A stretch of 64,000 nucleotides of DNA. Source: an uncultured Eubacteriales bacterium (GTDB lineage Bacteria; Bacillota; Clostridia; Oscillospirales; CAG-272). Where the stretch lies: assembly GCA_905205065.1 (NCBI GenBank), contig CAJLCI010000005.1, forward strand, positions 1,813 through 65,812, in the 5' to 3' direction. Positions 1 to 30,173 of the stretch are shown here, piece by piece. Each line of letters opens with the position of its first letter. The first letter of the stretch is position 1. A program made the translations under genes and the position numbers. The notes beneath the pieces were generated by a model. The model saw only the letters and a list, made by a program, of their open reading frames with translations. It was not told the origin of the DNA and did not search any database.

Positions 1-1
1 C

Positions 2-490
2 AATATAACAGATGTAAAACAGATTCTTCAATTTGCAATAGATGCGGAGATTAAAGTCTTTCTTGATGGTGGCTGGGGTGTAGATGCTCTTCTTGGATAT
101 CAGTCAAGAGCCCATAATGATATTGACATTTTTGTAGAAAAGAACGATTATCAGAACTTTATAGAAATAATGAAAGCTAATGGCTTTTATGAGATTAAGA
201 TGGAATATACAACATTGAACCATACTGTATGGGAAGATTTGAAAAACAGAATTATTGATTTGCATTGTTTTGAATATACGGACGAAGGTGAAATTCTTTA
301 TGATGGGGATTGTTTTCCGGTAGAAACTTTTTCGGGTAAAGGAAGAATTGAGGAAATAGAGGTTTCCTGTATTGAACCATATAGTCAAGTAATGTTCCAT
401 CTGGGATACGAGTTTGATGAAAATGATGCACATGATGTGAAGTTATTGTGTGAGACACTTCATATCGAAATTCCAAATGAGTATAGATAA
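2..490 (+). CDS. lnu: Lnu-family (LinA/Lnu(C)/ANT(2'')-like) lincosamide nucleotidyltransferase; 5' end clipped by the window edge (only a few codons missing)
   Basis: Frame 2 is open from nt 2 to TAA 488-490; the ORF track lists it only from the internal Met at 170. The translation NITDVKQILQFAIDAEIKVFLDGGWGVDALLGYQSRAHNDIDIFV... carries the DGGWGVD and HxDIDI nucleotidyltransferase signatures. The ~163-aa size is typical of Lnu enzymes. Confidence 0.8.
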   Translation, partial: NITDVKQILQFAIDAEIKVFLDGGWGVDALLGYQSRAHNDIDIFVEKNDYQNFIEIMKANGFYEIKMEYTTLNHTVWEDLKNRIIDLHCFEYTDEGEILYDGDCFPVETFSGKGRIEEIEVSCIEPYSQVMFHLGYEFDENDAHDVKLLCETLHIEIPNEYR

Positions 491-508
491 CTGCAAATAA
501 CAGTTTGT

Positions 509-530
509 AGGGGAGTTCTGATACTCCCCT
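509..530. terminator. Perfect 8-bp hairpin between convergent lnu and hydrolase genes (possible bidirectional terminator or cassette end)
   Basis: AGGGGAGT-tctgat-ACTCCCCT. Flanks are A/T-rich but neither strand has a long U tract. Confidence 0.35.
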
Positions 531-540
531 ATAAAAATGG

Positions 541-1194
541 CTATTTATCAACTGTTTGTTGTGACATAGCCATAAATAAAATGTTTCCCTGGATGTTCTC
601 CACATGAATGGCTGTATCCTCATCAAAATGTTTCAGCGGTTCTTCGTAGATGTAGGATAATTCGAACTGCTGATGGAGGATGAGGTTCCGGATTGCCGGC
701 CCATATTTCAGATGCGCTGTCATACACGGAAAATCTTTTCCCCTGTATGTGAATTCGGAGGCAGATGAAAAAGTTTTCGATGCCATGCTTTTATTCCCGT
801 ACATGCCTCCCCATATACAGTGCATCGGGGAGAGGGCAACAACGCCGCAGATATCCGGCATAAGGGAAGCGCAAAGCAGCGCCAGTTCAGCGCCTTTTGA
901 AATGCCGTACATGATAATCTTCTCATGTCCCTTGTTTTTCAGCCACAGGATTGCTTTTTCAAATGGATCGACAGGCACCCGAACCAATTCTTTCGGCAGC
1001 CCGTCTACGTTCCAGTAACAAATGCCTAACGCGGCGATGCCGCACCTGGCAAACATAGCGCCCACATTCATCGGGATATTTTCATTCCCTTCGCTGCCGC
1101 CTACTACGATGACGACCTTTTTGGGATCATGATCCTTAACAGGGACATGATAAAGTCCATAGAATCCCTCCTGTGCAACCGTCACATATTCCAC
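541..1194 (-). CDS. alpha/beta hydrolase, BAAT/acyl-CoA thioesterase C-terminal-domain-like; appears 3'-truncated
   Basis: GxSxG nucleophile elbow GISKGAELAL follows VVIVVGGSEG. The ORF stops shortly after the strand IQGNILFMA, before the Asp/His of the catalytic triad expected in this family. The stop abuts the hairpin and lnu 3' end. Confidence 0.55.
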   Translation of the reverse strand: MEYVTVAQEGFYGLYHVPVKDHDPKKVVIVVGGSEGNENIPMNVGAMFARCGIAALGICYWNVDGLPKELVRVPVDPFEKAILWLKNKGHEKIIMYGISKGAELALLCASLMPDICGVVALSPMHCIWGGMYGNKSMASKTFSSASEFTYRGKDFPCMTAHLKYGPAIRNLILHQQFELSYIYEEPLKHFDEDTAIHVENIQGNILFMAMSQQTVDK

Positions 1195-1892
1195 TTTCCC
1201 AACTCTCCCTGTTTTTGCAGCTTGGATTGCTGTCCGTATTTTCTTTCTTTATCCCATTTAGAGTCCTTTTTGCAAACATAGAAATCACACTTTTCTGCGC
1301 CATCTGCAAGTGTACCTGTCCTGTATAACACGCCGCCCATGAGATCAGCAGAAATAAAATCCATGGCACACATATAGGGTATCAGTTCTTCCAAATGCTC
1401 CTGTTTTCCAAGCGCACACAGGCCGCACCTGTGATAGTTGATGGTGTATTCGTCTGCATCCCTTCCGGGAATCGTCTCCGTCATCCAGTTGAATTCGCTG
1501 TCGGATATGGCATTTGCAATTCTGTCCTTCTTGACTTTCTTTTTTTGATATTCCATATCAAATGGATTTTTACTCCCGAAAGCTTTTTTAATGAGCGACG
1601 CCTGCATCGTGGCTGTCACCATTTCCCCGAACTGCTCATGGCTCATCGCCCCATCCATTGCCTTATAAACTGCCATCCAGACAATTCCGCCGGAAAGACA
1701 GATTCGCAGAGGATTTTTCGTAAAACCGCCTATGTCGGGTGTCCTCGCCAACATATCTTTAAAGTTTTTACGCGATTTCTTCTTCACCCTGAATGTATCC
1801 GTATTTTTGCAATTGGCTGCGATATATTTGAAAATAGCAGGTGTCATCGCTGACCACATCAGTTTTTCACAGATGGTGTTTTTCATATTCAT
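1182..1892 (-). CDS. L-2-amino-thiazoline-4-carboxylate (ATC) hydrolase-like family protein
   Basis: 236-aa ORF overlapping both neighbours (13 and 26 nt), which suggests an operon. The Cys-rich C-terminal half (YHRCGLCALGK...YMCAMDF...KCDFYVCKK) resembles the ATC-hydrolase family. This is recognition from memory, not a search. Confidence 0.4.
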   Translation of the reverse strand: MNMKNTICEKLMWSAMTPAIFKYIAANCKNTDTFRVKKKSRKNFKDMLARTPDIGGFTKNPLRICLSGGIVWMAVYKAMDGAMSHEQFGEMVTATMQASLIKKAFGSKNPFDMEYQKKKVKKDRIANAISDSEFNWMTETIPGRDADEYTINYHRCGLCALGKQEHLEELIPYMCAMDFISADLMGGVLYRTGTLADGAEKCDFYVCKKDSKWDKERKYGQQSKLQKQGELGKWNM

Positions 1893-2520
1893 GCTCCTTC
1901 AAAACGTACTCATAAACGAGGGACTGATTGCCGGAGCCATCCTGAAAGGGCTTCTCTGCCACTTTCTTAAATCCACGTTTTTCATAAAACTCCCACGATG
2001 CAAGAGTGTTCGTAAAAAGCCGCACACGATCTGCTCCATCAGCTTTTGCCCGATTCAAAAATTGTGTGACCAATGCGGTTCCCAGCCCCTTTCTGTAATT
2101 CCTTCTGGACGAAAGGGCAACGAGTTCCAGATCACATTTCCCAAAGGTTTCCTTAGCCCTTTCCCGTAGCTGGCGGAAAAAAGCATCAAACTGCTTCTGG
2201 AATGGCGCTGACATTTTATATCTTTTCAGATAGAACTTGAGGAACATTTTACACCAACAGCCATAGTGCTTTTTTGCTTCATATCGAGCTGCCAGATCCT
2301 TGCTGAAATGTTTATCATATTTTCCGCAGATAAATCCTACGACCTGATGATCCTCCGTTTCCGCAACATAGGTAAAATTACATTTTTCAATCAGAACCTG
2401 TGCGTAATCACGTAATAGTATTTTATCGTTCTGATCCACAGGGCATGAAAAAAATCCTTCGTAAAAGCAATCCCCGCAGGCCGCAGCATCTTCTTCCTTA
2501 TATGGACTAACAGTAAACAT
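1867..2520 (-). CDS. GNAT-family N-acetyltransferase
   Basis: Acetyl-CoA binding motif A RRNYRKGLGTALV; C-terminal WEFYEKRGFKKV typical of GNAT beta-bulge/helix region. Confidence 0.8.
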   Translation of the reverse strand: MFTVSPYKEEDAAACGDCFYEGFFSCPVDQNDKILLRDYAQVLIEKCNFTYVAETEDHQVVGFICGKYDKHFSKDLAARYEAKKHYGCWCKMFLKFYLKRYKMSAPFQKQFDAFFRQLRERAKETFGKCDLELVALSSRRNYRKGLGTALVTQFLNRAKADGADRVRLFTNTLASWEFYEKRGFKKVAEKPFQDGSGNQSLVYEYVLKEHEYEKHHL

Positions 2521-2566
2521 GGGTATATCCTCCTATGCGCAAATAGGTTAGATATTACTAACTAAT

Positions 2567-2595
2567 ATTATATCAGAAGATATATGGGACTGCAA
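2567..2595 (-). promoter_or_regulatory. sigma-A-type promoter for the GNAT operon
   Basis: Minus strand reads TTGCAG - 17 nt - TATAAT, ~45 nt upstream of the GNAT ATG, which is preceded by AGGAGG. Confidence 0.45.
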
Positions 2596-2667
2596 TTCCT
2601 TTTTTACCTGTTAATCATTTGATAGTGACAAGACGGATCATGAGAATCCTCCTTCCGTTTTAGAGTA

Positions 2668-2703
2668 AAGAAAAAGCAGGAGACCTCGTAAGAGATTTCC
2701 TGC
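2668..2703 (-). terminator. Rho-independent terminator of the TIR gene
   Basis: Minus strand reads GCAGGAAAUCUC-uuac-GAGGUCUCCUGC (12-bp stem with one mismatch and one G-U) followed by UUUUUCUUU. A (TA)n-rich run at 2722-2741 lies between the stop codon and the hairpin. Confidence 0.7.
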
Positions 2704-2751
2704 CGGGATACTATATTCCCTTATATATATTATATATATAATAGGCTGATA

Positions 2752-3777
2752 CTAGTTTTGAGCCTTCAATCGTTTAATCAGTTGTCGAGCAAAGAGTAAA
2801 GCAATTTCATCACAAGAATATGCTTTAGAATCTATAGCTTGAATATCTGCAACCGAGGGATACTTCTTCCTTAAATCTTCGTTAGTAATATTGTGAACAA
2901 TCGGCAATATCAATTTCTGTCCATTTCTATTTTGCCTATTCAGGAATTCATTCAGTTCCTTTTCTGTCCATTCACGGTCAAAGAAATTTTCAGAAATTAC
3001 AATAATAGCAAATTCAGCTTTTTTCGTTCCATCTAAAATACGGTCTTTCCATTTATCTCCCCATTCAAGAGATTTTTTATCATAAAATATTTTCACGCCA
3101 AGTTTTTCAAGAGAATCATTCAACTCATCTACGAGATCAGCTTTGTCCTTGTTGGCATGAGAAAGAAAAACATCATATTCTGGAAGCATATTGGCTTGGT
3201 ATACTGGAACCGTTGTTTTTTCGATACCATTCATTTTATCAATAAATTCCTGATCCTTACTAATACTTTTAAGACACGATACAAGTTGCCTATATGCGCC
3301 TAAGTTACGATGAAATAAAATAGTTTTAATTCTTGAACCAAGAGCATGTTCTTTCAAATATTTGTTATAAAAAATTTCAAAATCATTTATCCAATCCTCA
3401 CTTGGCTGATTATACTTATGTAAATCAAAATCCCCCGCTGCTGCATTAGCCGGAGGTTGAATGCTTTCTGTTCTTTTTAATAAATCATGTAGTTCCTTTT
3501 CAAATTGCGACATGCCTAATCTTCTTTCTTGCTCTTTCTTTTCCTCATACAAATAACCATCTTTAAGGATTTGTATTTGATAAGGATAGTTATCTCCCCA
3601 TTGAACATGTATCAAACCAGATTCTCTTAATTCCTTAAAACAGCCTCTGAGAATCGTATCATCTCGATTACTTAAATTTTCAAATCTATTTTTCCAATAA
3701 TCCGATACTTTCTCATTATCTACTATCTCTTTCAACACACTTTCTGCCTCATCGGAAATAACAATTCTATTCTCCAT
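2752..3777 (-). CDS. TIR-domain protein with ~200-aa N-terminal domain of unknown function (candidate stand-alone defence gene)
   Basis: The C-terminal ~140 aa is a TIR domain: YDVFLSHANKDKADLV... IIVISENFFDREWTEKEL, with the conserved Glu. The start is moved to the second ATG at 3777 (GGAG 6 nt upstream); the track start is 3783. The gene is visibly more AT-rich than the ICE backbone. Confidence 0.85.
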   Translation of the reverse strand: MENRIVISDEAESVLKEIVDNEKVSDYWKNRFENLSNRDDTILRGCFKELRESGLIHVQWGDNYPYQIQILKDGYLYEEKKEQERRLGMSQFEKELHDLLKRTESIQPPANAAAGDFDLHKYNQPSEDWINDFEIFYNKYLKEHALGSRIKTILFHRNLGAYRQLVSCLKSISKDQEFIDKMNGIEKTTVPVYQANMLPEYDVFLSHANKDKADLVDELNDSLEKLGVKIFYDKKSLEWGDKWKDRILDGTKKAEFAIIVISENFFDREWTEKELNEFLNRQNRNGQKLILPIVHNITNEDLRKKYPSVADIQAIDSKAYSCDEIALLFARQLIKRLKAQN

Positions 3778-3832
3778 ATGCATCTCCTTCTACATATTTT
3801 TCTCATTCTCTTTTCCAAACAACTTGAAAATT

Positions 3833-3861
3833 ATTATATCATACTGTACGTTAAATTGTAA
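3833..3861 (-). promoter_or_regulatory. sigma-A-type promoter of the TIR gene
   Basis: Minus strand reads TTACAA - 17 nt - TATAAT, ~55 nt upstream of the ATG. Confidence 0.45.
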
Positions 3862-3876
3862 TCTACTTTATCCATT

Positions 3877-4314
3877 TCACTCGTCTTCCTCCCATCCCTT
3901 CTGCCAGCTCACCGCATCATCAAAAGAGAAGGAGCCATTCAGCCTTTTGACCTCCTTGACACATTCTCCCCGCAAGCGTTCCAGTGACACCGGATCGATG
4001 TTGTTATTCGCCGCGACCACATTCATCATCACCGCCAGCTCCACAGCCAGCTTGAAGATCATCCGGTTCTGCCGGTGATCGCTCTCCGCCACAATGCTTT
4101 TCAGTGTGGATGTGACGATATTGGGGAGATAGATTTTGTTGTCCTCTGCGGAAAGATATCCCGCATAAAAAATGACAGCCTTTTCAATGAACTCGCTCTT
4201 ACTGTCGCAGTTGTCTTTTTTATAGAGAGTGTCCGCCAACTCCAGGGTGGATGGCCTGATCCAGAGCTGGAAGCGGCGTTTGATTTCTTTCTTTTTTGCC
4301 TCTGTATCCTGCAT
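3877..4314 (-). CDS. Ribbon-helix-helix (CopG/MobC-like) DNA-binding protein of the ICE
   Basis: The N-terminus KRRFQLWIRPSTLELADTLYKK..SKSEFIEKAVIFYAGYL fits a strand-helix-helix pattern. AGGAGG RBS present. The gene lies immediately downstream of the structured intergenic region. Confidence 0.55.
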   Translation of the reverse strand: MQDTEAKKKEIKRRFQLWIRPSTLELADTLYKKDNCDSKSEFIEKAVIFYAGYLSAEDNKIYLPNIVTSTLKSIVAESDHRQNRMIFKLAVELAVMMNVVAANNNIDPVSLERLRGECVKEVKRLNGSFSFDDAVSWQKGWEEDE

Positions 4315-4717
4315 GTCTGAAATCCTCCTTCTTATTCATAGGAACCTGCCAAAGCACCGTAACATTCCTTGAAACCTCTGGTTCTCAGGGAATGGAAGCA
4401 CCTGACCAGGAACCTTTTTCCCAAATCCGGCACCGTAATGCTATTTCTTTCGAAATCGGCGGAATGCCTTGAAGTGGCCGGCTCTGCCGGACACAGTGAG
4501 CTGGGGCGGGGCCGCCATGCGGCACCGCCCCTTTCTCCTGCTTGATTTTCGACCCTGTATCCGCACGGGGAACCGTTGCTTTTCCATGGGCGGAGCCTGC
4601 CTTCACACGGGGCGCAAACGTCTCGTAAACCAGCGGGGAGGGATAACTTCCTCGACCTCGCCCACAAAATCGCAACACGGGGTCGACAGGCGGCTCACAG
4701 GGGTGTTCCTTTTCGCA
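4315..4717 (-). promoter_or_regulatory. GC-rich structured non-coding region: candidate oriT / ssDNA-active element or ncRNA
   Basis: ~400 nt with no credible ORF. There are four direct copies of CAC(A)GGGG on the plus strand (4564-4570, 4606-4612, 4676-4682, 4696-4703). A very stable hairpin sits at 4503-4531 (GGGGCGG-g-GCCGC-cat-GCGGC-a-CCGCCCC). A second hairpin sits at 4474-4494 (GTGGCCGGC-tct-GCCGGaCAC). Confidence 0.35.
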
Positions 4718-5401
4718 TCACATCTCCTGAACCGGCGGCGTTGTTTCTTCTGCCTGTTCGGGAGAATGCCAGTCAATCTCACGATCCCGCAATGCTTCTT
4801 CGAAGATCAGCTCTTTTGCTGCTATTGGGATTGTAGATTTGCGCTCAGCACGGTAGACCGCAGTAGAAACATCTTTCAGACGATAAGCCCGCCACTCCGG
4901 ATCGCCCTGCTCTTTTACGCTGATCGTTCCATCGTCAAAATCAAATTCCAGGAGCGCGGTAATTCGATCATCATGCTCCATAGCGGTGCATAAGACAGAG
5001 AAGGTCAGGTCATCAATAGGCTGATGTTCTCCAAAAGAAAGCGCCAGACTGTCCAAGGTCAGCCTGCCCTCATTCTCCCGCATAAAATTCCGATAGAGAT
5101 AAGCCGCACTGTAGAAGTTGTTTCGCAGGTCGGAAGTGAAATGAAAATCATCCCCGTCCTCATGGAAATGGATCACAGCAAATCGTCTGGCAGCTTCAGC
5201 CTCACGTTGTGCTTTCGCTTCTTCCTGACAGATCAGTGTTTCGATTTCCTCACGCTTTTCTTCCGGGACGAGAGACGCATAGGTTTCTTCAAAACATTTC
5301 CGCAGCACACCTTCGATGGTACGCCCCTGATCAGTCAGGATCTCGTCCAGAGCAGCGAGCCGATACTCGTTAAAATATACGGTAACATCGATATCATTCA
5401 T
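4718..5401 (-). CDS. hypothetical ICE protein (acidic, no recognisable motif)
   Basis: 227-aa ORF, 24 nt downstream of the methyltransferase stop; same strand and composition as the backbone. Confidence 0.6.
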   Translation of the reverse strand: MNDIDVTVYFNEYRLAALDEILTDQGRTIEGVLRKCFEETYASLVPEEKREEIETLICQEEAKAQREAEAARRFAVIHFHEDGDDFHFTSDLRNNFYSAAYLYRNFMRENEGRLTLDSLALSFGEHQPIDDLTFSVLCTAMEHDDRITALLEFDFDDGTISVKEQGDPEWRAYRLKDVSTAVYRAERKSTIPIAAKELIFEEALRDREIDWHSPEQAEETTPPVQEM

Positions 5402-5424: not shown

Positions 5425-7106
5425 TCAGTTTTTCTGTTTCTCTGCAAACTCTTTCTCCATAATCAGAACAATCCCACGCAGAACAAAAGTAACACACGGG
5501 ATTGCCACACTATTGCCCAGGGCTTTATACCTTGGCGAGTCAGATGCCCCATCGATCAAAGTCCAGCCATCCGGGAAACCCTGCAGCCGCTCACACTCCA
5601 GAGGAGTGAGACGGCGGATCAGATTTCTGTTTACCTCAGGCTGGCAGATTAGGTCAGTTGCATCTTTATATTGTCTGGCGCTTTCTGTGCCAGCGACTTT
5701 GCTTTCCTGGAATTCATCCACTCGCTGGCGGCTATAGACTGCATGCCGGTCTGTTGTATTCAGGGTGTAACTGATATCTTCCTGATAGCCAAACCCATTC
5801 CCGCCATTTTTACTCTGCCGGTCAATGATATTCCCGGCAATACAATAGCTGTCCGGTTCCTCCGCAATCAGAGGAAGATTATTGCCACCTGTGCCGCTTC
5901 TGGCTGACAGTGTCGGGGATACCGGCAGCGGTCCGGTATAACGTCCATCGATCCCGTGGTTTTCAAATAGTACCAGGGATTGCGTATTGCCTCCCATCCC
6001 GTAGGATGCAGTTACCGCCTGTGCTTTTTCAACGGGGCCGGTGAATCGGAGATCCTGCCCATGGTTATCAAAAACCAGCGGAGGATGACCGGACATCTGC
6101 GCCCGAAGTGTTCCTGCCACATCTACACTGCAGTCCATCACCTGGCCGCCCTGATCGTTCAGGCAGAGAGTCGGCTCTTTCTGCTGGTCAGGGAATCCGG
6201 CGATAAAGGTCTGCATCTGCATATTTCTTGTTGCCATCAATGCGCCGGAAACATGGCCCAGGTTAATCGTTTCCTCTCTTTGATTAATATGGAAAGCCAT
6301 GAATCCTTCCTGACCTATTTGATCCCCGCCTGGATCTCCAGTGCTTTTTTGAGTATCTCCGGAAGCTCCTTGCCCCGTTCTGCTGATCTCCGCAGAATAC
6401 CCAGGCAGGCTTTCCTGCTTAAATAATATTTCCGGGGCGGATGTTCCTCCAAAATCTGCGACAAGAAAGATTCTCTTACGTCTCTGGGGGACTCCCCAGT
6501 ATTGAGCGTCCAGGACTCTCCAAGCGACAGAGAATCCACTTCCCAATATGGCCCCAGCAGATTTCCACCTCCCGGCCGGAGGTCGAGGAACAGATATGGT
6601 ATGGTCGGCGATCCTGCAGATTTCCTCCAGGACCGCTCTGAAATCTTCTCCGTTTGAAGATGAGAATGCTCCGGGGACGTTTTCCCACACCATGAATCGG
6701 GGAACAATTCCGCAAGGGTTAACTGTTTCATTTCCTCGTTGTCTTTTTGCATCTGTCTTTCTCATCTCCTTTACGATCCGGATCTGCTCCATAAATAGTC
6801 CGGAACGCTCCCCGGACAAGCCTGCGCGCTTTCCCGCGATGCTCAGATCCTGACAGGGTGATCCGCCCGTAATGATATCTACAGCCGGAAGTTCCGCCCC
6901 TTTTAATTTCGTAATATCGCCCACATGGAGCATCTCCGGGAACCGCTGCCTGGTCACCTGGATCGGAAAAGGTTCTATTTCACTGGCCCATATCGGAAGG
7001 ATTCCGTTCCGGACAGCAGATAAAGGAAAACCGCCAATCCCATCGAACAGGCTCCCAAGCCGCAGTCTGATTCCCGTTGATTTTCCTATTACAGAACTTT
7101 TCGCAT
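5425..7106 (-). CDS. DNA (cytosine-5)-methyltransferase with several tandem TRD-like modules; 5' end disrupted by an apparent 1-nt frameshift
   Basis: Motifs present: IV GGSPCQDLS, VI ENVPG, VIII QRRKRIFLV, IX/X TPLECERLQGFPDGWT..YKALGNSVAIPCV. Motif I (LGSLFDGIGGF, ~7027-7059) lies upstream of the track start (GTG 6957) in the same frame. That frame has no ATG/GTG/TTG back to the stop at 7108-7110. An ATG at 7106 with a GAGGTG RBS is in the other frame and stops after 5 codons. The two frames meet at an A4 tract (7098-7101). Confidence 0.85.
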
Positions 7107-7425: not shown

Positions 7426-8475
7426 TCACATGGAAAGAGCAGGCCCGGAGTCTTGGCTCCAGTCCTGCTCGTCCTCACTTACATGAATCATTTTTGCCTG
7501 CCCCATGGGTGTCTGATGGAACACAGTACTGTCTGTACAGCAGTTCGTCCAGTCGGTCTGTTCCATGCGGCAGCTCTGGATCAGTGCGCCGGAAAAGTTG
7601 CTGTGGGTAAAGATGGCTCCCCGGAAGGTGCAGCCATCAGCCACCATCTTTTTAAAGCATGTTTCCTCAGCAGTGACGCCCTTGAGATCACAGGAGAACA
7701 AGGTTGCCTCAGTAAAATCAGAGAAGCACAGCTCCGTCTGCGCCAGATTCGTTTCATACATTCTGGCTCCTGCGAAGATGGCGCTGTTCAGATTCCGATG
7801 GCTCAGATTCAGTCCGGACAGATCGTATCCGGAGAAGTCAGCCTGTTCGCCGCCTGCATCGTGAAGCCAGAGGACATGTTTGGCGCAAATCACATCGACG
7901 TCCTCCTGGCTGAGCCGGGGAAGTTCTTTTTCTTCATGAGCATATTCCGGGTTCAGCTTGATGCACAGCTCATCGCCCAGGTCATCCAGATACGCAATCT
8001 CCGGGCGATCCTCCAGCATTCCAACGAGAAGCTGGGTTTCAACTTTATCCAATGCCATCTCATCTGTCAGTATCCGGTACATTCCGCTCTGCTGGTCGAT
8101 GATGGCTTTTTGTGTGTATTGTTCCGCCATTTCCGCCATCTCCTGATTGAATTTTGCTATTGTAGGGTACTGATCCAGAAGATAAAGTTGGCGGGCCTTG
8201 GGAAGAAAAGCATGGTAGCGGGCATAGTCATAGCCTTCTGCGTCAACGAGGATACCATCCTCCTGGTTTTCTCCCAGCACCAACAGGCAGTGCCGGGTTC
8301 CGTCCGCATCCTGACGCATGGCTCCACGGTGTTTGGAAATAAAATCATATTCTGCCAGCGGTGATTGATAGAAGCGGGCATACTCGCTTTCGGAAAGTTC
8401 CACAACCTTTTCTACCATACAATGCTGAGAGCGGATTTTTTCATCCTTTCGATGGAAAAATGCATAGAGATCCAT
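7426..8475 (-). CDS. Pentapeptide-repeat protein with N-terminal unknown domain
   Basis: The C-terminal ~120 aa is tandem A(D/N)LxX-type pentapeptides: ADFSGYDLSGLNLSHRNLNSAIFAGARMYETNLAQTELCFSDFTEATLFSCDLKGV... Confidence 0.75.
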   Translation of the reverse strand: MDLYAFFHRKDEKIRSQHCMVEKVVELSESEYARFYQSPLAEYDFISKHRGAMRQDADGTRHCLLVLGENQEDGILVDAEGYDYARYHAFLPKARQLYLLDQYPTIAKFNQEMAEMAEQYTQKAIIDQQSGMYRILTDEMALDKVETQLLVGMLEDRPEIAYLDDLGDELCIKLNPEYAHEEKELPRLSQEDVDVICAKHVLWLHDAGGEQADFSGYDLSGLNLSHRNLNSAIFAGARMYETNLAQTELCFSDFTEATLFSCDLKGVTAEETCFKKMVADGCTFRGAIFTHSNFSGALIQSCRMEQTDWTNCCTDSTVFHQTPMGQAKMIHVSEDEQDWSQDSGPALSM

Positions 8476-15748: not shown

Positions 15749-16183
15749 TTACATTCCCGGCCCGGTCATACCGATGGATTCGTCCTGATACATTCCCACA
15801 TAGTCAAGGATCGTATCCGCGATCTGTGTCCGGTCTGCCTGGGTAATGGGAAGATACCAAGAGGGCTTGCCATCGTATTCCCATATGTGCGGTTCGATGG
15901 CATCCCTTCCATTTCGGAGCTGTTTTCCAATGATATCAGAAAAGCGGAAAAGCTGCTGATCCACCACGCCATCGGTCCGGTTGATGATGGACAGCTTGAT
16001 GGCATCGTATTGGTCTATGATGCCAGTGGTCGTAAGCTGCAGCTTTACCCTCAGATCCTCATCCAGCCGGGCCTGACAGGTTCTCCCACAGAAGTGGGCA
16101 TCCTGTAAAAGTTCACTGTTTCCAAAGAAATCCCGCATTTCCTTTTCGTAAAAATTCATGCTGTTTCCTTTCTGCCTTTTCAC
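15749..16183 (-). CDS. hypothetical ICE protein
   Basis: 144-aa ORF. The track start is a GTG overlapping the upstream stop; an ATG at 16159 (MNFYEKEM) is an alternative. Confidence 0.5.
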   Translation of the reverse strand: MKRQKGNSMNFYEKEMRDFFGNSELLQDAHFCGRTCQARLDEDLRVKLQLTTTGIIDQYDAIKLSIINRTDGVVDQQLFRFSDIIGKQLRNGRDAIEPHIWEYDGKPSWYLPITQADRTQIADTILDYVGMYQDESIGMTGPGM

Positions 16184-17616
16184 TGGCTCATGGCAGGGCC
16201 GGGTTCTTCCGGTGCCATGTCAGGCGAGGTATCCTCCTTTGCCGGAGGAGCCAGGATTGCCGGATTGACAACGCCTTCGCCGCTGTATCCAAACATCTGA
16301 TTATGCCATTGCCGCAGTTCCTCGCCATGTTCCCAATAGTGACACAGCAGATTGACCGCCTGCCCGTACATAAAGCCGGTAATGCCATCCGTATCCGCCG
16401 GATGATTGGTGCGCTCGGCGGCCTCCGCTACAGAAGCCCCGTCTTTGATTTCCTGTTCCATCATCCGGCTCCAACGCTCGGCATAGCGGACAATCCCGTC
16501 ACTGCCTTTTTCTTTTCTCAGTTCCAGATAGTTTTTTTCCATTCCATCCCGGATGCAAAAAGGCGGAACAGAGCTGGTTCCCGGATCAGATAACATATCC
16601 TTTCGGGTAAAAAGTTCCCGGTTGCTGAATCTGCCCCAGGGATCGTCCTCCGGGACAACGTCCGGATATAACCGGGGAAGGAGCTGGCTGATTTCATCCA
16701 AGCTCATTTCATATAAGACTCGTTCCCCAATCATCCAGTCCTGATTTTCCTGCATTGGCTCTTTTAATTGCGCCATCAGATCCAGGCTACTGGCTGGATA
16801 TTCGTCTTTCTCAAACCGGAAGGTCTGATAAAACTGCCGGAAAGTATGCATTTCGACAGCGTGATCCAACGCTCCCTCAACATCCAGGGAAGACCATTGC
16901 TGTTCCATGAGGGCATATTCCTGATCCAAATGAACGTCCAAAAGCTCCATGAGGGCAGCATGATCAGTCATACCGGCTGCGGTCTCATCCAGCTTGTAAT
17001 ACTCCGCCAGCTTCTCCCTGTTCAGTTCCACATCTTCTAAAAGGAGCCTTGCGTTAGGGCCGATTTCAAAATATCCGCCCTGGTCATATGCCTGCGCCAG
17101 CGTAGCCAGAGGCGATTCTTCTTCTGCCAGGGCCGCTAAATATCCCTGATCGTAGCTGGCGCTGCATTGCTCCAGGTTGCGATAGACGGTCTGCACCACA
17201 CAAATCTCAGGGAGCTTTTCATAGAAGGCATCTTTCCCTTGCGAAAAAGCAGCGTTCCAGTGACTCTGATAGGCTTCGTATTCTGCCTGCAGTTTCGGAT
17301 GCAGCGTATCCAATACCTCCGGATTGCCAAAGTAGCGGTAATAGTGAGTCGGCGGCAGGACGGTCATCCCCGGCATGTGCAGATAGGCATCCTCTTTCGT
17401 CCATGCGGCGATTTCCTCCAGGGTAGCGTTCCGGTTTGGCTCCCCGTTTTCATACCAACAGGGATGGTCTACGATCTGAAAACTGCGGAGCTGCTCCCTG
17501 GCAAGCAGCTCCTGAATCGCCGGGTGCTGATCCAATTCTCCGCTATCCGGCACGAACAGATCCAGCATGGTTTCTCCAGGTTTTAAGCGGATCTCACATC
17601 GATGGAATATGACCAT
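16180..17616 (-). CDS. hypothetical large ICE protein
   Basis: 478-aa acidic ORF with no catalytic motif recognised. Confidence 0.55.
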   Translation of the reverse strand: MVIFHRCEIRLKPGETMLDLFVPDSGELDQHPAIQELLAREQLRSFQIVDHPCWYENGEPNRNATLEEIAAWTKEDAYLHMPGMTVLPPTHYYRYFGNPEVLDTLHPKLQAEYEAYQSHWNAAFSQGKDAFYEKLPEICVVQTVYRNLEQCSASYDQGYLAALAEEESPLATLAQAYDQGGYFEIGPNARLLLEDVELNREKLAEYYKLDETAAGMTDHAALMELLDVHLDQEYALMEQQWSSLDVEGALDHAVEMHTFRQFYQTFRFEKDEYPASSLDLMAQLKEPMQENQDWMIGERVLYEMSLDEISQLLPRLYPDVVPEDDPWGRFSNRELFTRKDMLSDPGTSSVPPFCIRDGMEKNYLELRKEKGSDGIVRYAERWSRMMEQEIKDGASVAEAAERTNHPADTDGITGFMYGQAVNLLCHYWEHGEELRQWHNQMFGYSGEGVVNPAILAPPAKEDTSPDMAPEEPGPAMSQ

Positions 17617-23605: not shown

Positions 23606-23823
23606 CAGAACACCTCGCTTTCCTCGCAAGTATCCGCATGAGGGCAGTTCTCGCAATCGCCGTCACAGGCGATACCGTCTTCCATGCCATCCATCACCTC
23701 AATGACGATCCGGCCCTCCGAGGCGGAGTAGCGAAGCAGCGACAGCGGTTCGATGCCGGAGGCCATGAACAGATCGGCGGGGACAGGCATGAAAATAAAT
23801 CCCTTTACGATTTTTTCTTGCAT
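23605..23823 (-). CDS. small AbrB-like / Cys-rich acidic protein
   Basis: PVPADLFMASGIEPLSLLRYSASEGRIVIEV followed by CDGDCENCPHADTC. Start taken at ATG 23823. Confidence 0.4.
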   Translation of the reverse strand: MQEKIVKGFIFMPVPADLFMASGIEPLSLLRYSASEGRIVIEVMDGMEDGIACDGDCENCPHADTCEESEVF

Positions 23824-24785
23824 GATATAATACACTCCTTTAAGGTTTTTTCGTAATCGAAACTGGGATCGGAAAACAGCGTCATCTGATGCGGTTTCCG
23901 GCGTTCCCTCTCATACAGGTCATAGTTACCGATGAGCAGCTCCGGGAATTCCTTGCCCGCCTCGTATTTCTGCACCATGGAGTGGATGCGCTTAAAATCA
24001 AAGAACTCCGATCCCCGGTACAGATCCCGGATCTGTGGGCAGTCGTTGTAGGACACCAGCCATTTGCCTTTCGCATCTGCCAGGGCGCTTTGGAGCCGCA
24101 CATGATCTTCCCAGGTAAACCCGCACTCGTACACATACTCGCTGCTGAAATAGGGCGGATCACAGTAAAAGAAGGCGTCTGGACGGTCATAATGGCTGAT
24201 CAGCACTTCAAAATCCTGATTTTCGATGACAGCGTTCTCCATCCGGATGCTGAAATCCTGGATCAGCCCGAACAGGCTCCGGACAGAGAAGGGCTGGCAG
24301 GCAAAGCTCTTTCCCGAACTGGAATAGCTGTAACGGATGAGTTTTAGGAACATCACCGCCCGGCGCAGGTCATAATCATGCATGGCCTTTTTATACAGCT
24401 CCCGGATTTCCTCCGCTTTGATCTCTGGCAGGACAATGGTGGTCAGATCCAGCTCCTGATTTAAGAATTCATCCGTAAATTCTTCCTTCTGGAAAAACTT
24501 CTTTAAGACCAGGAAGTCATCCCTGGCGTTTAGAGGCAGAAAGCCCAGTTCCCGGATAAAAGACAGAGGCCGGTCACGCATACAGCGGAAGAGGTTTACC
24601 AGGTTCCCATTGTAATCGTTATAAACCTCGAATTTATCCGGCTCGGCCTTTCCGAGCAGCACTGCGCCGGAACCGCCGAAGGGTTCGATGTACCGCTCAT
24701 AGCGGATTGGGAACAGCGCATAGAGAATGTGGAGGATGGACGTTTTATTGCCCACCCAGCTCACAGGTGTTTTAATATTCACCAC
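23805..24785 (-). CDS. Orphan N6-adenine DNA methyltransferase (Dam/D12 class)
   Basis: Motif I EPFGGSGAV, motif IV DPPY (FYCDPPYFSS), N-terminal WVGNK. No endonuclease gene is adjacent. Confidence 0.85.
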   Translation of the reverse strand: MVNIKTPVSWVGNKTSILHILYALFPIRYERYIEPFGGSGAVLLGKAEPDKFEVYNDYNGNLVNLFRCMRDRPLSFIRELGFLPLNARDDFLVLKKFFQKEEFTDEFLNQELDLTTIVLPEIKAEEIRELYKKAMHDYDLRRAVMFLKLIRYSYSSSGKSFACQPFSVRSLFGLIQDFSIRMENAVIENQDFEVLISHYDRPDAFFYCDPPYFSSEYVYECGFTWEDHVRLQSALADAKGKWLVSYNDCPQIRDLYRGSEFFDFKRIHSMVQKYEAGKEFPELLIGNYDLYERERRKPHQMTLFSDPSFDYEKTLKECIISCKKKS

Positions 24786-25596: not shown

Positions 25597-25783
25597 GAAT
25601 CCTTCTCTCCATTTCTACTTGGTTCATCATCGCCTGTGTTTCGTTCAGGCGCTTATTCAGCTTTTCAATTTCCGCAGCGGTTTCCCGCTGATATTCCCGG
25701 TAACTGAACAGTGCCATGGCTGCCAGGGCGGTAATCGCCGCTCCCAGGATCAGGCCAAGAACAAAATCCAGAGCAAACATCAT
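25580..25783 (-). CDS. small membrane-anchored coiled-coil protein
   Basis: 67 aa; N-terminal TM helix (FVLGLILGAAITALAAMALF). Confidence 0.45.
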   Translation of the reverse strand: MMFALDFVLGLILGAAITALAAMALFSYREYQRETAAEIEKLNKRLNETQAMMNQVEMERRIHGNNH

Positions 25784-27369
25784 GACTGTATACCTCCCAT
25801 CTGTGGGGCAGTGTCTTCCTCCTGGGCATCCGTCTGGGTAAAATCTGTTTGCAGGAATTCCTCCGGTGTCAGGTCGTAGCCCAGGAAGTTAGGGCTGGTA
25901 TCGTCATCGAATACAAAATATTCCTGGCCGCCAAAGTCCAGCGGCGCTTTGGTCAGGATCGTACCAGCGTGATTTACCGCCACGTTCCTTTCAATGGTGG
26001 CGAAAGCCAGATTTTCTCCTTCCCGCAGGTCATAGCGGTAAAGCCCATCCGGAAGCTCCTGTTCGGTTACCCGGCCATTGGTAAACAGGGCGGTCTGCCC
26101 AAGCACCTCCACCACTTCCAGCTTTTCATCCGTCAGGGCCTGGGTGGATAGTTCTCTGGACGACTCCCCATAAGGAACCAATTCGTACAGGGAATGCCCG
26201 CGGGCCGATAGGATTCCATATTCTGTCTGTGATGCGCTCAGACTTTGCAGCAATCTGGCTCCTTCGGCCTGTGTTGCAATGGTGGACAGCCACCTCCGAT
26301 CCATGCGGGCGTCCAAGTGATGGGACAGATATTCTTTGAAAAAGTTCGCCTCATCACAGGGCAGAGGTGTGAATTCATACTCTGGAAGATGAGAGGCAAG
26401 CTCCAGGGCCTTTTCCATTGTCAGGTGCGGCTCGGCCTCCAGTACCGCCTTGTATTTAATCTGCTCCGGTTCGTCCATGGCCTGATACTGCATGGCAATC
26501 TGGTTCAACCGGGCAAAGTGATCCATGCTGTCGAAGACCTGGTCATCGATCTGTGGGATGGCGGATTCCATGTCGAAATAAACACAGTCTTCCATGCAAA
26601 CCTCGTTTTGTCGATTTGCCGCCTGATCTGCCTGTTCCTGCGAAATCGGCAGGCTGATCCACTCGGCACTTCCAATGGTTTCTTCCGGATCGTCCATGGG
26701 CGTTTGAGCGACCAAAAGCCGGAACACAGTATCCTCCGGTTCTTCCTTTATTTCCGGCAGATGGGTTCCATCATAAATCTCAGCCAGCTCATATGCCCCG
26801 GCTACCACGTAACAGCCCTCCACGAACACGCCGCCATCATTTTCCCTCTGCATTTTCCCGATCTGAGCCAAATCCAGCAGATAGAGGGAGGACTCAGGGA
26901 TGGCGTTTACATCTTCATTCAGCTCATTCTCGATGACAAACCGCCCCAAGGCTTCATCATCGCCGACATTCGAGGCGATCATGACCGCTTCCAGTCCATA
27001 GGTCAGGTTGATCAGATCCTTCATGGGGATTCCGTTCTCATACCGGACATCTTCCATCCGGTAGCGGAATACGCCTTTCAGAAGCAGGATATCCTCATCC
27101 GGCATGGACGCCAGCCGGCGGGCAAAAAAGTTTAGCTCCGGAAGCGTGGGAGCGATCAGGATAGTATCGGCCAGCTCCGGGAGTTTTGGGCTTTCCCGGA
27201 TGCTCACGTTGAAAGAGGGGGCCGGATTTTCTGTAGCCCGGAGTCTCTGGAGAGCGTCCTGAATGCGGCCGCCCATGGCAGGAAGGTCTAAGGCTGTAAA
27301 ATAAACGCCGCTCTGGTCAGCATTTTCTGTGACTACTTCAATCTGTAAGGTTTTTCTATCGGATTCCAT
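25780..27369 (-). CDS. hypothetical large ICE protein
   Basis: 529-aa ORF with 4-nt overlap to the downstream gene; no motif recognised. Confidence 0.55.
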   Translation of the reverse strand: MESDRKTLQIEVVTENADQSGVYFTALDLPAMGGRIQDALQRLRATENPAPSFNVSIRESPKLPELADTILIAPTLPELNFFARRLASMPDEDILLLKGVFRYRMEDVRYENGIPMKDLINLTYGLEAVMIASNVGDDEALGRFVIENELNEDVNAIPESSLYLLDLAQIGKMQRENDGGVFVEGCYVVAGAYELAEIYDGTHLPEIKEEPEDTVFRLLVAQTPMDDPEETIGSAEWISLPISQEQADQAANRQNEVCMEDCVYFDMESAIPQIDDQVFDSMDHFARLNQIAMQYQAMDEPEQIKYKAVLEAEPHLTMEKALELASHLPEYEFTPLPCDEANFFKEYLSHHLDARMDRRWLSTIATQAEGARLLQSLSASQTEYGILSARGHSLYELVPYGESSRELSTQALTDEKLEVVEVLGQTALFTNGRVTEQELPDGLYRYDLREGENLAFATIERNVAVNHAGTILTKAPLDFGGQEYFVFDDDTSPNFLGYDLTPEEFLQTDFTQTDAQEEDTAPQMGGIQS

Positions 27370-29462: not shown

Positions 29463-30173
29463 TCACATTCCCATGGCGAAACCTACATGTTCATCTTCCG
29501 ATTCATCCTCAATCTCGGATTCATCCTCGTATTCGTCCTCCAGGGCTTCTTCGGTTTCTTCCTCGCCCTCATCCTCCAGGGCATCCTCTGACATATCTTC
29601 ATCGTCCTGATCCTCTGACTCGCCGGTTTCCTCTAATGGAGACATCTCATCATCCAGTTCTTCGGCATCAGGGCCTTCCTCAGATGTCTCCGGTTCTTCC
29701 TGATCGGAGATAGACGGTTCCGCTTCATCCATTTCCTCCGCAGAAGAAGCAGTTTCCGCATCTTCCAGTAACTCCTGATCAGCGTCCAACTGCTCAGTAT
29801 CCTCCAGTTCCTCTGTATCCTCGAAGTCACCCTGGGCCTCGCCGGTTTCCTGACTCTCAGCCAGATCCCGATCCAGCTCCTGCTCAATCAGGCCGATGAC
29901 AAAGTCTTTCTGTGTCATGTTATTGCGGTGCAGATAATCCTTGATCCGCTGGAACAGGCTTTCCGGCACCTGAAACGCCAGTGTCCTCATTTTCTCCATG
30001 TTTTTCCCTTCCTTTTCATCAATTTTAGGATGCAGTTCATCCTGCAATGCCAGTGTGACAAACTCCGTCATCGTCATCCCGTGGTCTTGCAGATATTGTG
30101 TAATCTCGGCATGCAAAGCCGCATCGACTTTGACCGTAATGCCTTTCTTCCCGTCAGCAGCCACTGTGTTCAC
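29463..30173 (-). CDS. Tandem RHH-like DNA-binding protein with ~130-aa poly-acidic tail
   Basis: Two strand-helix-helix-like units (ITVKVDAALHAEITQYLQDHGMTMTEFVTLAL and LAFQVPESLFQRIKDYLHRNNMTQKDFVIGLI). These are followed by an almost pure D/E/T/S tail. Confidence 0.55.
   Translation of the reverse strand: MNTVAADGKKGITVKVDAALHAEITQYLQDHGMTMTEFVTLALQDELHPKIDEKEGKNMEKMRTLAFQVPESLFQRIKDYLHRNNMTQKDFVIGLIEQELDRDLAESQETGEAQGDFEDTEELEDTEQLDADQELLEDAETASSAEEMDEAEPSISDQEEPETSEEGPDAEELDDEMSPLEETGESEDQDDEDMSEDALEDEGEEETEEALEDEYEDESEIEDESEDEHVGFAMGM

Follow-up and report, generated by a model that had tools for sequence, protein, structure and literature searches.

The DNA analysed here (the window, meaning the whole stretch of 64,000 nt) contains an island of 52% GC, running from position 3877 to about 30200 and set in surrounding DNA of 35–42% GC, with all of its genes on the minus strand. 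The island is an integrative conjugative element (ICE), whose gene content includes a VirB4-like ATPase, a CHAP hydrolase, TrbL_5, a sortase, a SpaA adhesin, ArdA-LPD28, a Tad4-domain protein and two orphan methylases. Our subject is a spacer of 403 nt in the operon of this ICE, a candidate origin of transfer (oriT), which separates the gene for a protein of 227 amino acids (aa) from the gene for a 145-aa protein of a family with a ribbon-helix-helix (RHH) domain:

4315..4717, no strand: whole intergenic spacer, from the 227-aa gene to the RHH gene (open reading frame map and sequence)
3877..4314, minus strand: 145-aa protein with N-terminal RHH domain, candidate relaxosome accessory factor in the place taken by Aux2 in pLS20 and TraM in F (family Pfam matches and synteny)
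4718..5401, minus strand: 227-aa gene, function unassigned, weak DUF6103-like N-terminus (homologues upstream of the spacer in many relatives)

The borders of the spacer are the stop codon of the 227-aa open reading frame (ORF; 4718–4720) and the ATG of the 145-aa ORF (4312–4314), which has a strong ribosome-binding site, both ORFs lying on the minus strand. An earlier note on this DNA had described a long, GC-rich, non-coding gap in a packed operon with an RHH gene directly after it, and each part of this description holds. No gap in the ICE operon is longer than the spacer, those next in length measuring about 250 nt; its GC content is 56.8%, rising to 60.7% in 4438–4717, compared to 52.3% for the ICE; and the RHH gene does follow it along the direction of transcription, since the genes run on the minus strand. 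No conserved ORF was found within it. One frame of the minus strand is open for 110 codons, and was rejected as a gene because it is broken by 1-nt indels among relatives that are 88–94% identical, and because neither its start nor its frame is kept in distant relatives. A small ORF, with an AGGAG in the invariant 12-mer described below and a GTG 9 nt later in the window, was likewise rejected, as relatives lose the GTG or have an immediate stop.

Conservation was examined in about 110 related loci, of which 13 from genomes and 80 from metagenomes were retrieved with the 145-aa protein as query. In Sellimonas catena (locus L001) the RHH protein is 100% identical to that of the window and the spacer is 99.75% identical. 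In close relatives the spacer retains 86–98% identity (88–98% in 20 or more of them), with 1-nt indels present, and the conservation in related ICEs on which the earlier note had made its proposal depend is therefore there to be seen. Relatives with an RHH protein only 66–74% identical to that of the window retain just the central part of the spacer. The plasmid collection PLSDB contained no match for the spacer DNA, and none of its plasmids encodes the RHH protein.

The part that persists was captured by a covariance model, R1, built from 47 distinct cores, which matches the window exactly once (120 bits, E about 1e-25) and each related locus once as well. This match and the features within it are:

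4438..4564, minus strand: conserved core of 127 nt, candidate minimal oriT (single window match of R1)
4530..4557, minus strand: 28-nt block CAGGGTCGAAAATCAAGCAGGAGAAAGG, proposed nick region (near-invariant across relatives)
4531-4542, minus strand: 12-mer AGCAGGAGAAAG inside the 28-nt block (11 positions invariant; CTTTCTCCTGCT on the plus strand)
4503..4531, no strand: inverted repeat IR1, carrying pentamer site B0 in its block-proximal arm (sequence and covariation)
4495..4502, minus strand: linker between IR1 and IR2, AGCTCACT, with family consensus GCTCACAGC (conserved columns in alignments)
4474..4494, no strand: inverted repeat IR2, GTGTCCGGC aga GCCGGCCAC (9 pairs, one conserved internal mismatch)

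Read 5' to 3' on the minus strand, the core thus consists of the 28-nt block (4557–4530), IR1 (4531–4503), a short linker and IR2 (4494–4474). The block is 100% identical in close relatives, in which the flanking genes are 81–96% identical, and 81–100% identical in distant relatives, in which the RHH gene is 67–77% identical. It is therefore better conserved than either flanking gene, indicating a stronger constraint than that on the neighbouring coding sequence. The 12-mer within it (AGCRGGNGAAAG) is found a single time in each locus, about 230–250 nt before the RHH start codon and with no change of strand; two additional matches, in L082 and L083, both fall in unrelated sequence.

Both hairpins are at the positions that the earlier note had given, and the covariation that it had suggested looking for across relatives is present, with compensatory changes in each inverted repeat. 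IR1 has arms of 13 nt, 92% complementary, around a 3-nt loop, and its outer stem covaries among lineages (GGGGCGG/CCGCCCC, GAGTCG/CGACTC, GACTCGG/CCGAGTC and GACACG/CGTGTC, with CGAGGGG/CCCCTCG in the defence islands described below). IR2 shows compensatory changes in four of its nine pairs, while its apical CGGCAnnGCCG is invariant across ICEs and islands. For the two repeats together, 90.5% of cells are paired, compared to 27–50% in slid controls, compensatory double changes occur in 8 of 16 hairpin pairs, and none of 500 shuffles attains the observed covariation score. Wobble pairs in the stems number 18 on the coding and 16 on the template strand, and the lack of bias is a better fit to an inverted repeat acting at the DNA level than to an RNA made from one strand. 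The hairpins are also stable as single-stranded DNA (z = -4.9 on the plus strand). Another potential hairpin, at 4363–4394, was discarded because changes in relatives break its pairing.

Two further observations concern these repeats. In L036, L037, L079, L084 and L092, IR2 is a perfect stem directly before TTTT and resembles an intrinsic terminator on the coding strand, whereas in the window no T-run follows the IR2 stem. In addition, two loci (L061:13-139 and L063:54-180) join a left half of the island type, comprising the 12-mer flank and IR1, to a right half of the ICE type with its pentamer sites and RHH gene, the crossover falling within 25 shared nt around IR2. As each contig starts inside the element, these loci may be true oriT-to-oriT recombinants or assembly chimeras at the 25-nt repeat. 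Because the contigs are possibly chimeric, the hybrids were not used to derive a nick position.

The protein encoded next to the core belongs to a large family (1,570 clusters at 90% identity and 1,873 at 50%), and at the family level the sequence comparisons clearly point to an N-terminal RHH domain. Pfam RHH_1 was matched by 22 of 50 diverse family members (best E 7.4e-8), and the best matches of the family profile against the PDB were RHH proteins over residues 8–52, at sub-threshold E values of 0.07 and 0.5; taken alone, the window protein was below every Pfam threshold. An AlphaFold monomer model had a mean pLDDT of 49 and was hence not used for a fold search. Between the core and the RHH gene, and within IR1, lie the sites that this protein is predicted to recognize:

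4522..4526, minus strand: pentamer site B0, GGTGC, in the 5' arm of IR1 (offset +16 from the 12-mer in all lineages; GGGGT in the GGGTY group)
4430..4434, minus strand: pentamer site B1, GGTGC, within TTACGGTGCC (offset about +108, all lineages)
4410..4414, minus strand: pentamer site B2, GGTTC (offset about +128)
4398..4402, minus strand: pentamer site B3, GGTGC, 12 nt from B2 (offset about +140)
4354..4358, minus strand: pentamer site B4, GGTGC, within TTACGGTGCT (offset about +184-185)
4342..4346, minus strand: pentamer site B5, GGTTC, 12 nt from B4 and about 10 nt upstream of the ribosome-binding site (offset about +196-197)
4324..4331, minus strand: ribosome-binding site (RBS) of the RHH gene, GAAGGAGG (sequence)

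The six sites stand at fixed offsets from the 12-mer, one in the IR1 arm and five between IR2 and the RHH start codon. Most elements have GGTGC (or GGTTC) as the pentamer and one group has GGGTY, all six positions changing together. The predicted beta-strand of the RHH protein changes along with them, reading KRRFQxW(I/L)(R/K)PS in GGTGC elements and KRKFALWI(K/R)(E/Q)S in GGGTY elements. The differences fall at alternate positions predicted to face the DNA (R14, Q16 and R20 in the window), while the buried hydrophobic residues are retained. This joint switch of pentamer and beta-strand is suggestive of a link between the RHH protein and the candidate sites.

Some RHH genes are found in other settings. 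Proteins of 223 aa (P0012 and similar, in L033-L035) consist of the first 86 aa of the product of the ICE's first gene fused to residues ~6-145 of the RHH protein. By its sequence, such a fusion implies a deletion of about 25 kb, in which the mating-pore genes and the oriT core were lost, and the RHH gene, the cargo and presumably the downstream relaxase gene were kept. At L004:5934-6438, an RHH gene 96% identical to that of the window is accompanied by only the last 67 nt of the spacer. Its neighbours are LysR and acetyltransferase genes, none of them from the ICE, and it is apparently an isolated remnant.

The genes beyond the RHH gene connect the spacer to a relaxase. Among ICE-type relatives the core is always upstream of the RHH gene, and in all distant relatives with an intact module a MobL gene starts 7–15 nt past the RHH stop codon and is followed by a DUF3991/Toprim gene. 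The relaxase gene product matches Pfam MobL (E 5.5e-32), has a 3-histidine motif that aligns to RelLS20, the relaxase of the Bacillus subtilis plasmid pLS20, and carries C-terminal Sel1 repeats. In the window's clade only, a variable low-GC cargo segment of 1–5 kb, with TIR, GNAT, TetR and similar genes, is inserted between the RHH and relaxase genes. In the matching locus L001, the start of the relaxase gene lies about 270 nt beyond window position 1, and the gene is intact as far as it can be followed, over 589 aa. The earlier note had held that an oriT mapping elsewhere, for example beside a relaxase outside the window, would speak against its proposal; the relaxase is indeed outside, and what parts it from the RHH gene is only the cargo insertion of this one clade. 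In the window itself, the cargo slot (1-3876) holds a TIR-domain gene (2752-3783) with its own promoter-like site on the minus strand (3833-3862), a GNAT gene and thiazoline-hydrolase-like genes, and in relatives (L002, L005 and L006) TetR or methyltransferase genes are found instead downstream of the RHH gene.

The core is not confined to ICEs. A DNA-pattern scan of IMG/VR, made without a protein query, uncovered 17 loci that matched R1 at 69–88 bits, and R1 has 21 matches in total on a class of defence islands. These islands (L095-L119) share a backbone of DUF6809, HTH_17, HTH_36, the core, and then one or two tyrosine integrases, the core lying between the HTH_36 gene, of 146–156 aa, and a tyrosine integrase gene (for example, L109:10089-10215, L113:10448-10573 and L098:8770-8895). 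Their variable cargo includes restriction-modification systems, Z1/DUF4420/AIPR with a methylase, HATPase-TIR, PRTase-CE with a reverse transcriptase, and Schlafen-like and HerA/NurA-like genes. Loci fetched by means of the HTH_36 protein, on chromosomal contigs of up to 640 kb, show this backbone too; the four tested with R1 (L113-L116) have the core in the corresponding position and chromosomal genes on the far side of the integrases. The HTH_36 protein family comprises more than 3,700 clusters. The 12-mer and IR2 are common to the islands and the ICE core, as is an IR1 with sequence of the GGGGTT type in its arm and in two repeats downstream. No homologue of the RHH protein or of MobL was detected by tblastn in the 17 pattern-scan loci, and no relaxase family was detected by Pfam among the larger ORFs scanned or genes called in the 5–10 kb upstream of the island core. 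The structure of the core is thus kept while the neighbouring genes change entirely, which suggests a cis-acting site used by trans-acting proteins, and speaks against a leader or operator dedicated to the RHH gene.

Considered together, these observations make it probable, on the evidence of sequence, that 4315–4717 is the oriT of a MobL-relaxase ICE of gut Clostridia, with its specificity set by the RHH protein. We favour this reading because of the synteny of RHH, MobL and Toprim genes, which is as in pLS20, the conservation of the block, the covariation of the hairpins, the concerted switch of the sites, the portability of the core, the absence of strand bias and the stability of the hairpins in single-stranded DNA. 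Under this reading, oligomers of the RHH protein would bind the pentamer sites, one in the IR1 arm by the invariant block and five between IR2 and the RHH start, shaping the DNA and determining which oriT subtype (GGTGC or GGGTY) is recognized. The MobL relaxase would recognize the invariant block and/or IR2 and nick one strand, most likely the plus strand, which is the operon's template, at a point about 9 nt 3' of IR1 and within CTTTCTCCTGCT (4531-4542). In the known MOBP, MOBQ and MOBV systems, the nicked strand is cut about 8 nt 3' of its inverted repeat. This geometry, the template-strand nick of pLS20, and the core of the staphylococcal plasmid pWBG749, which lies beside a subtype-specific arm, are our reasons for the proposed placement; alternatively, the nick could be beside IR2 or on the other strand. 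Transfer of the plus strand would bring the 227-aa gene and the orphan C5 methylase gene (5425-6957) into the recipient first, and the RHH gene, cargo and relaxase gene last. As the last RHH sites adjoin the RBS, binding probably also autoregulates expression of the RHH protein and the relaxase.

Several points weigh against this interpretation. R1 finds nothing in pLS20 (L094), the sole MobL oriT compared, with which the spacer has no oriT sequence similarity, and the RHH protein gave no BLASTP alignment with pLS20 Aux2 and an hhalign probability of 0.8–4.6%. The T-run after IR2 in some lineages is terminator-like, and a regulatory role may therefore coexist with transfer. Deletion derivatives without the core still keep the RHH gene and presumably the relaxase gene as well. 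The switch between GGTGC and GGGTY was perhaps a single evolutionary event, and hence carries small statistical weight. On the islands, 5–10 kb of each was seen, and a relaxase could be located farther off. Finally, the nick site, the nicked strand and mobilisation are what we infer from the sequences.

For the islands, we raise the tentative possibility that the core is a shared oriT, which allows very abundant relaxase-less integrative defence islands of gut Clostridia to ride on MobL ICEs, and that the code formed by the beta-strand and the pentamer (GGTGC/GGGTY) picks which ICE moves which island. If this is true, the pairing of islands and ICEs would make the spread of gut anti-phage defence systems predictable from sequence.

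The earlier note had offered three readings of the spacer, namely an oriT, a promoter active in single-stranded DNA, and a structured RNA, and only the first of these gained from the analysis, through conservation, RHH/MobL synteny, covariation and portability. A function in regulation only, in which the RHH protein represses its own operon through the pentamers and IR2 serves as a terminator or attenuator between the mating-pore and relaxase genes, with no role in transfer, could account for the reach of the pentamer sites to about 10 nt from the RBS and for the TTTT that follows IR2 in several lineages (including L036, L037, L079 and L092), and has a precedent in TraM, an oriT-binding RHH protein that is autoregulatory (PMC8136818). 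It is nevertheless unlikely, considering that islands lacking an RHH gene also carry the core and pentamer sites, there in front of an unrelated integrase gene, that scans found no sigma-70-like promoter or terminator within 4315–4717 and the window's IR2 is not followed by a T-run, and that operator function leaves the 11 invariant positions of an unpaired 12-mer unexplained. The signal might instead be active in single strands, either as a promoter of the Frpo type known from F or as a priming site for complementary-strand synthesis by the Toprim primase of the ICE. A primase gene is indeed found beyond the relaxase gene, the hairpins remain stable as single-stranded DNA, especially on the plus strand, and the whole spacer also folds better on that strand (z = -3.29). 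However, there are no -35/-10 boxes on either strand within 4315–4717, the hairpins are short (13 and 9 pairs) rather than a long promoter-forming stem, and the invariant block is unpaired. Such a signal could coexist with an oriT, yet it leaves the array of RHH sites unexplained, and on its own we regard it as very unlikely.

A structured RNA on the operon transcript, whether a cis-regulatory leader, a processing site or a small RNA, would be in keeping with two covarying hairpins inside a co-directional operon. Against it, no Rfam 15 family reached its gathering score in scans of the whole window or in a permissive scan of the region, and the spacer accordingly belongs to no known RNA family at threshold, an outcome that the earlier note had left open. 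The one sub-threshold resemblance, to nrdJ RNA (4463-4534, minus strand, 23.7 bits compared to a threshold of 40.3, E 0.06), was judged to be due to chance and is explained by two adjacent GC-rich hairpins. The best-conserved part of the core is unpaired, wobble pairs favour neither strand, the fold of the whole spacer as RNA on the transcribed strand is not unusual (z = -1.65), the short repeats change along with a DNA-binding beta-strand, and the element precedes unrelated genes in two contexts, all of which make an RNA highly improbable. Equally little credence can be given to a vegetative replication origin, with iterons bound by neighbouring proteins (HTH_36 on islands, RHH on the ICE). 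The direct repeats are iteron-like, HTH_36 domains occur in replication-initiator-like proteins, and an HTH_36 gene is directly upstream of the island core; in the ICE, however, no HTH_36 gene lies beside the core, and the repeats track the RHH beta-strand. Furthermore, ICEs that replicate usually start at oriT by means of the relaxase, which is the oriT interpretation itself and not a rival to it.

The remaining part of the spacer, between the upstream gene and the core, contains direct repeats that had first drawn attention to this region as a possible array of iteron-like protein sites. The four CAC(A)GGGG copies reported in the earlier note are all present: on the plus strand, CACRGGG occurs at 4564, 4606, 4676 and 4696, and these are 4 of the 13 window matches, inside 139 nt (Poisson probability about 6e-9, or about 3e-6 allowing for all positions). 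Two of the copies belong to a helically phased array of TGT repeats, which many relatives retain; CAC(A)GGGG is not a family-wide determinant, and the GGTGC/GGTTC pentamers look like protein sites instead. By comparison of sequences across the family, the CAC(A)GGGG repeats are real but not universal. The features of this part are:

4666..4703, minus strand: four TGT-containing repeats at an exact spacing of 11 nt, CCCCTGTG, CCGCCTGTC, CCCCGTGT and TTTTGTGG (TGT at 4699, 4688, 4677 and 4666)
4606..4612, plus strand: extra CACGGGG copy (retained in the window's clade only)
4564..4570, plus strand: extra CACGGGG copy, immediately 5' of the core on the minus strand (retained in the window's clade only)

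The TGT array lies just past the stop codon of the upstream gene and includes the CACRGGG copies at 4676 and 4696. In 31 diverse relatives, the lags between TGT trinucleotides are concentrated at 11 nt (23 pairs), 22 nt (16) and 10 nt (11) and are near zero elsewhere, and the L049 lineage is without the whole 5' part that holds the array. The 227-aa protein encoded at 4718-5401 has a weak match to DUF6103 (E 0.14), the product of the ICE's first gene (29463-30173) matches RepB-RCR_reg (E 7e-5), and a strand-helix-helix-like sequence opens both genes. The ICE may, to judge from these sequences, encode additional RHH-type DNA-binding proteins, one of which perhaps binds the phased TGT repeats.

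Elsewhere on the ICE, several genes are likely to have anti-defence functions. These are the orphan C5 methylase (5425-6957), a DUF6329/pentapeptide-repeat protein (7426-8475), a protein with a domain of the Thoeris inhibitor Tad4 (16180-17616), an orphan N6-adenine methylase (23805-24785), and the ArdA-LPD28 polyvalent protein (25780-27369).

To our knowledge, few origins of transfer are known for Gram-positive ICEs, and pLS20 has the only MOBL oriT that we found mapped in the literature searched, where we did not find the core sequences described here. Definition of the core at nucleotide resolution across a large family would allow this ICE family to be recognized and its mobilisable partners to be predicted. 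It also gives precise test constructs, in the form of the 127-nt core, the 12-mer as a candidate nick region, and the three beta-strand residues that are predicted to set specificity. That defence islands also carry this core suggests a specific path along which anti-phage systems could pass between gut bacteria.

The arrangement described here can be compared with several known systems. In MOBP origins of transfer (R64 NikA/NikB and RP4), the RP4 nick falls between G and C in ATCCTGC, 8 nt 3' of an inverted repeat. On the plus strand of the window, IR1 is followed after about 9 nt by an invariant CCTGCT, which recalls both the nick geometry of MOBP and the cleavage of CCTGC between its last two bases; only a 5-mer is shared, however, which is not significant, and the nick sequence of pLS20 is different. 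MOBL relaxases have been reported to be closest to MOBP (PMC5313138). In pLS20, the oriT of 362 bp lies upstream of two RHH accessory genes, contains direct repeats, inverted repeats and a GC-rich stretch, and is nicked on the template strand (PMC5313138, PMC5675868). Its gene order (oriT, aux1, aux2, mobL, DUF3991/Toprim, encoding Aux1, Aux2 and the MOBL relaxase RelLS20) is also that of the elements studied here, with oriT, RHH gene(s), MobL and DUF3991/Toprim inside a conjugation operon. Both regions are non-coding, about 360–400 bp long, and combine inverted repeats and a GC-rich stretch with phased direct repeats of the TGTG type in the 5' half (PMC5313138). The TGTGCAT repeats of pLS20, 21 and 55 nt apart, occupy the same half of oriT and are bound by Aux2, a protein of 147 aa that compares with the accessory protein of ~145 aa with an N-terminal RHH domain in our family (PMC5675868). 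The differences are that the pLS20 nick context, cut between GAATCGGGGGCCGG and CTTTTTGC, has no counterpart in this spacer, that one accessory gene rather than two lies downstream of oriT, that the relaxase here has C-terminal Sel1 repeats, and that the element is an ICE rather than a plasmid. As far as this comparison goes, the resemblance to pLS20 is one of organisation and not of demonstrable DNA homology.

The logic of subtypes is like that described for pWBG749 and its RHH protein SmpO, in which an identical core lies beside a divergent inverted repeat whose core-proximal arm has an RHH site, with further sites at a fixed distance (PMC8136818). There, too, the RHH gene is between oriT and the relaxase gene, and residues of the beta-strand are linked to specificity subtypes; the identical oriT is also found on elements that encode no relaxase (PMC8136818), as may be the case for the defence islands here. 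The two systems are unrelated in sequence, relaxase family and hosts, and the candidate hitchers here are chromosomal defence islands bearing integrases, not plasmids; binding and mobilisation were measured for pWBG749, while both are what we infer in the present case. A third likeness is to TraM of F and its sbm sites, as the gene that comes next after oriT encodes an RHH protein whose C-terminal part is helical, and several short sites, with motif pairs 12 bp apart, lie between the nick region and the protein's own gene (PMC3159463, PMC8829557). The two systems have no sequence homology, and the sites here are direct repeats instead of palindromic GANTC motifs; pLS20 Aux2 has itself been reported as an analogue of TraM. 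Set beside these systems, the spacer has the appearance of an uncharacterised oriT of a known general kind, and it is likely, judging by its organisation, that it serves a MobL relaxosome with an RHH accessory factor.

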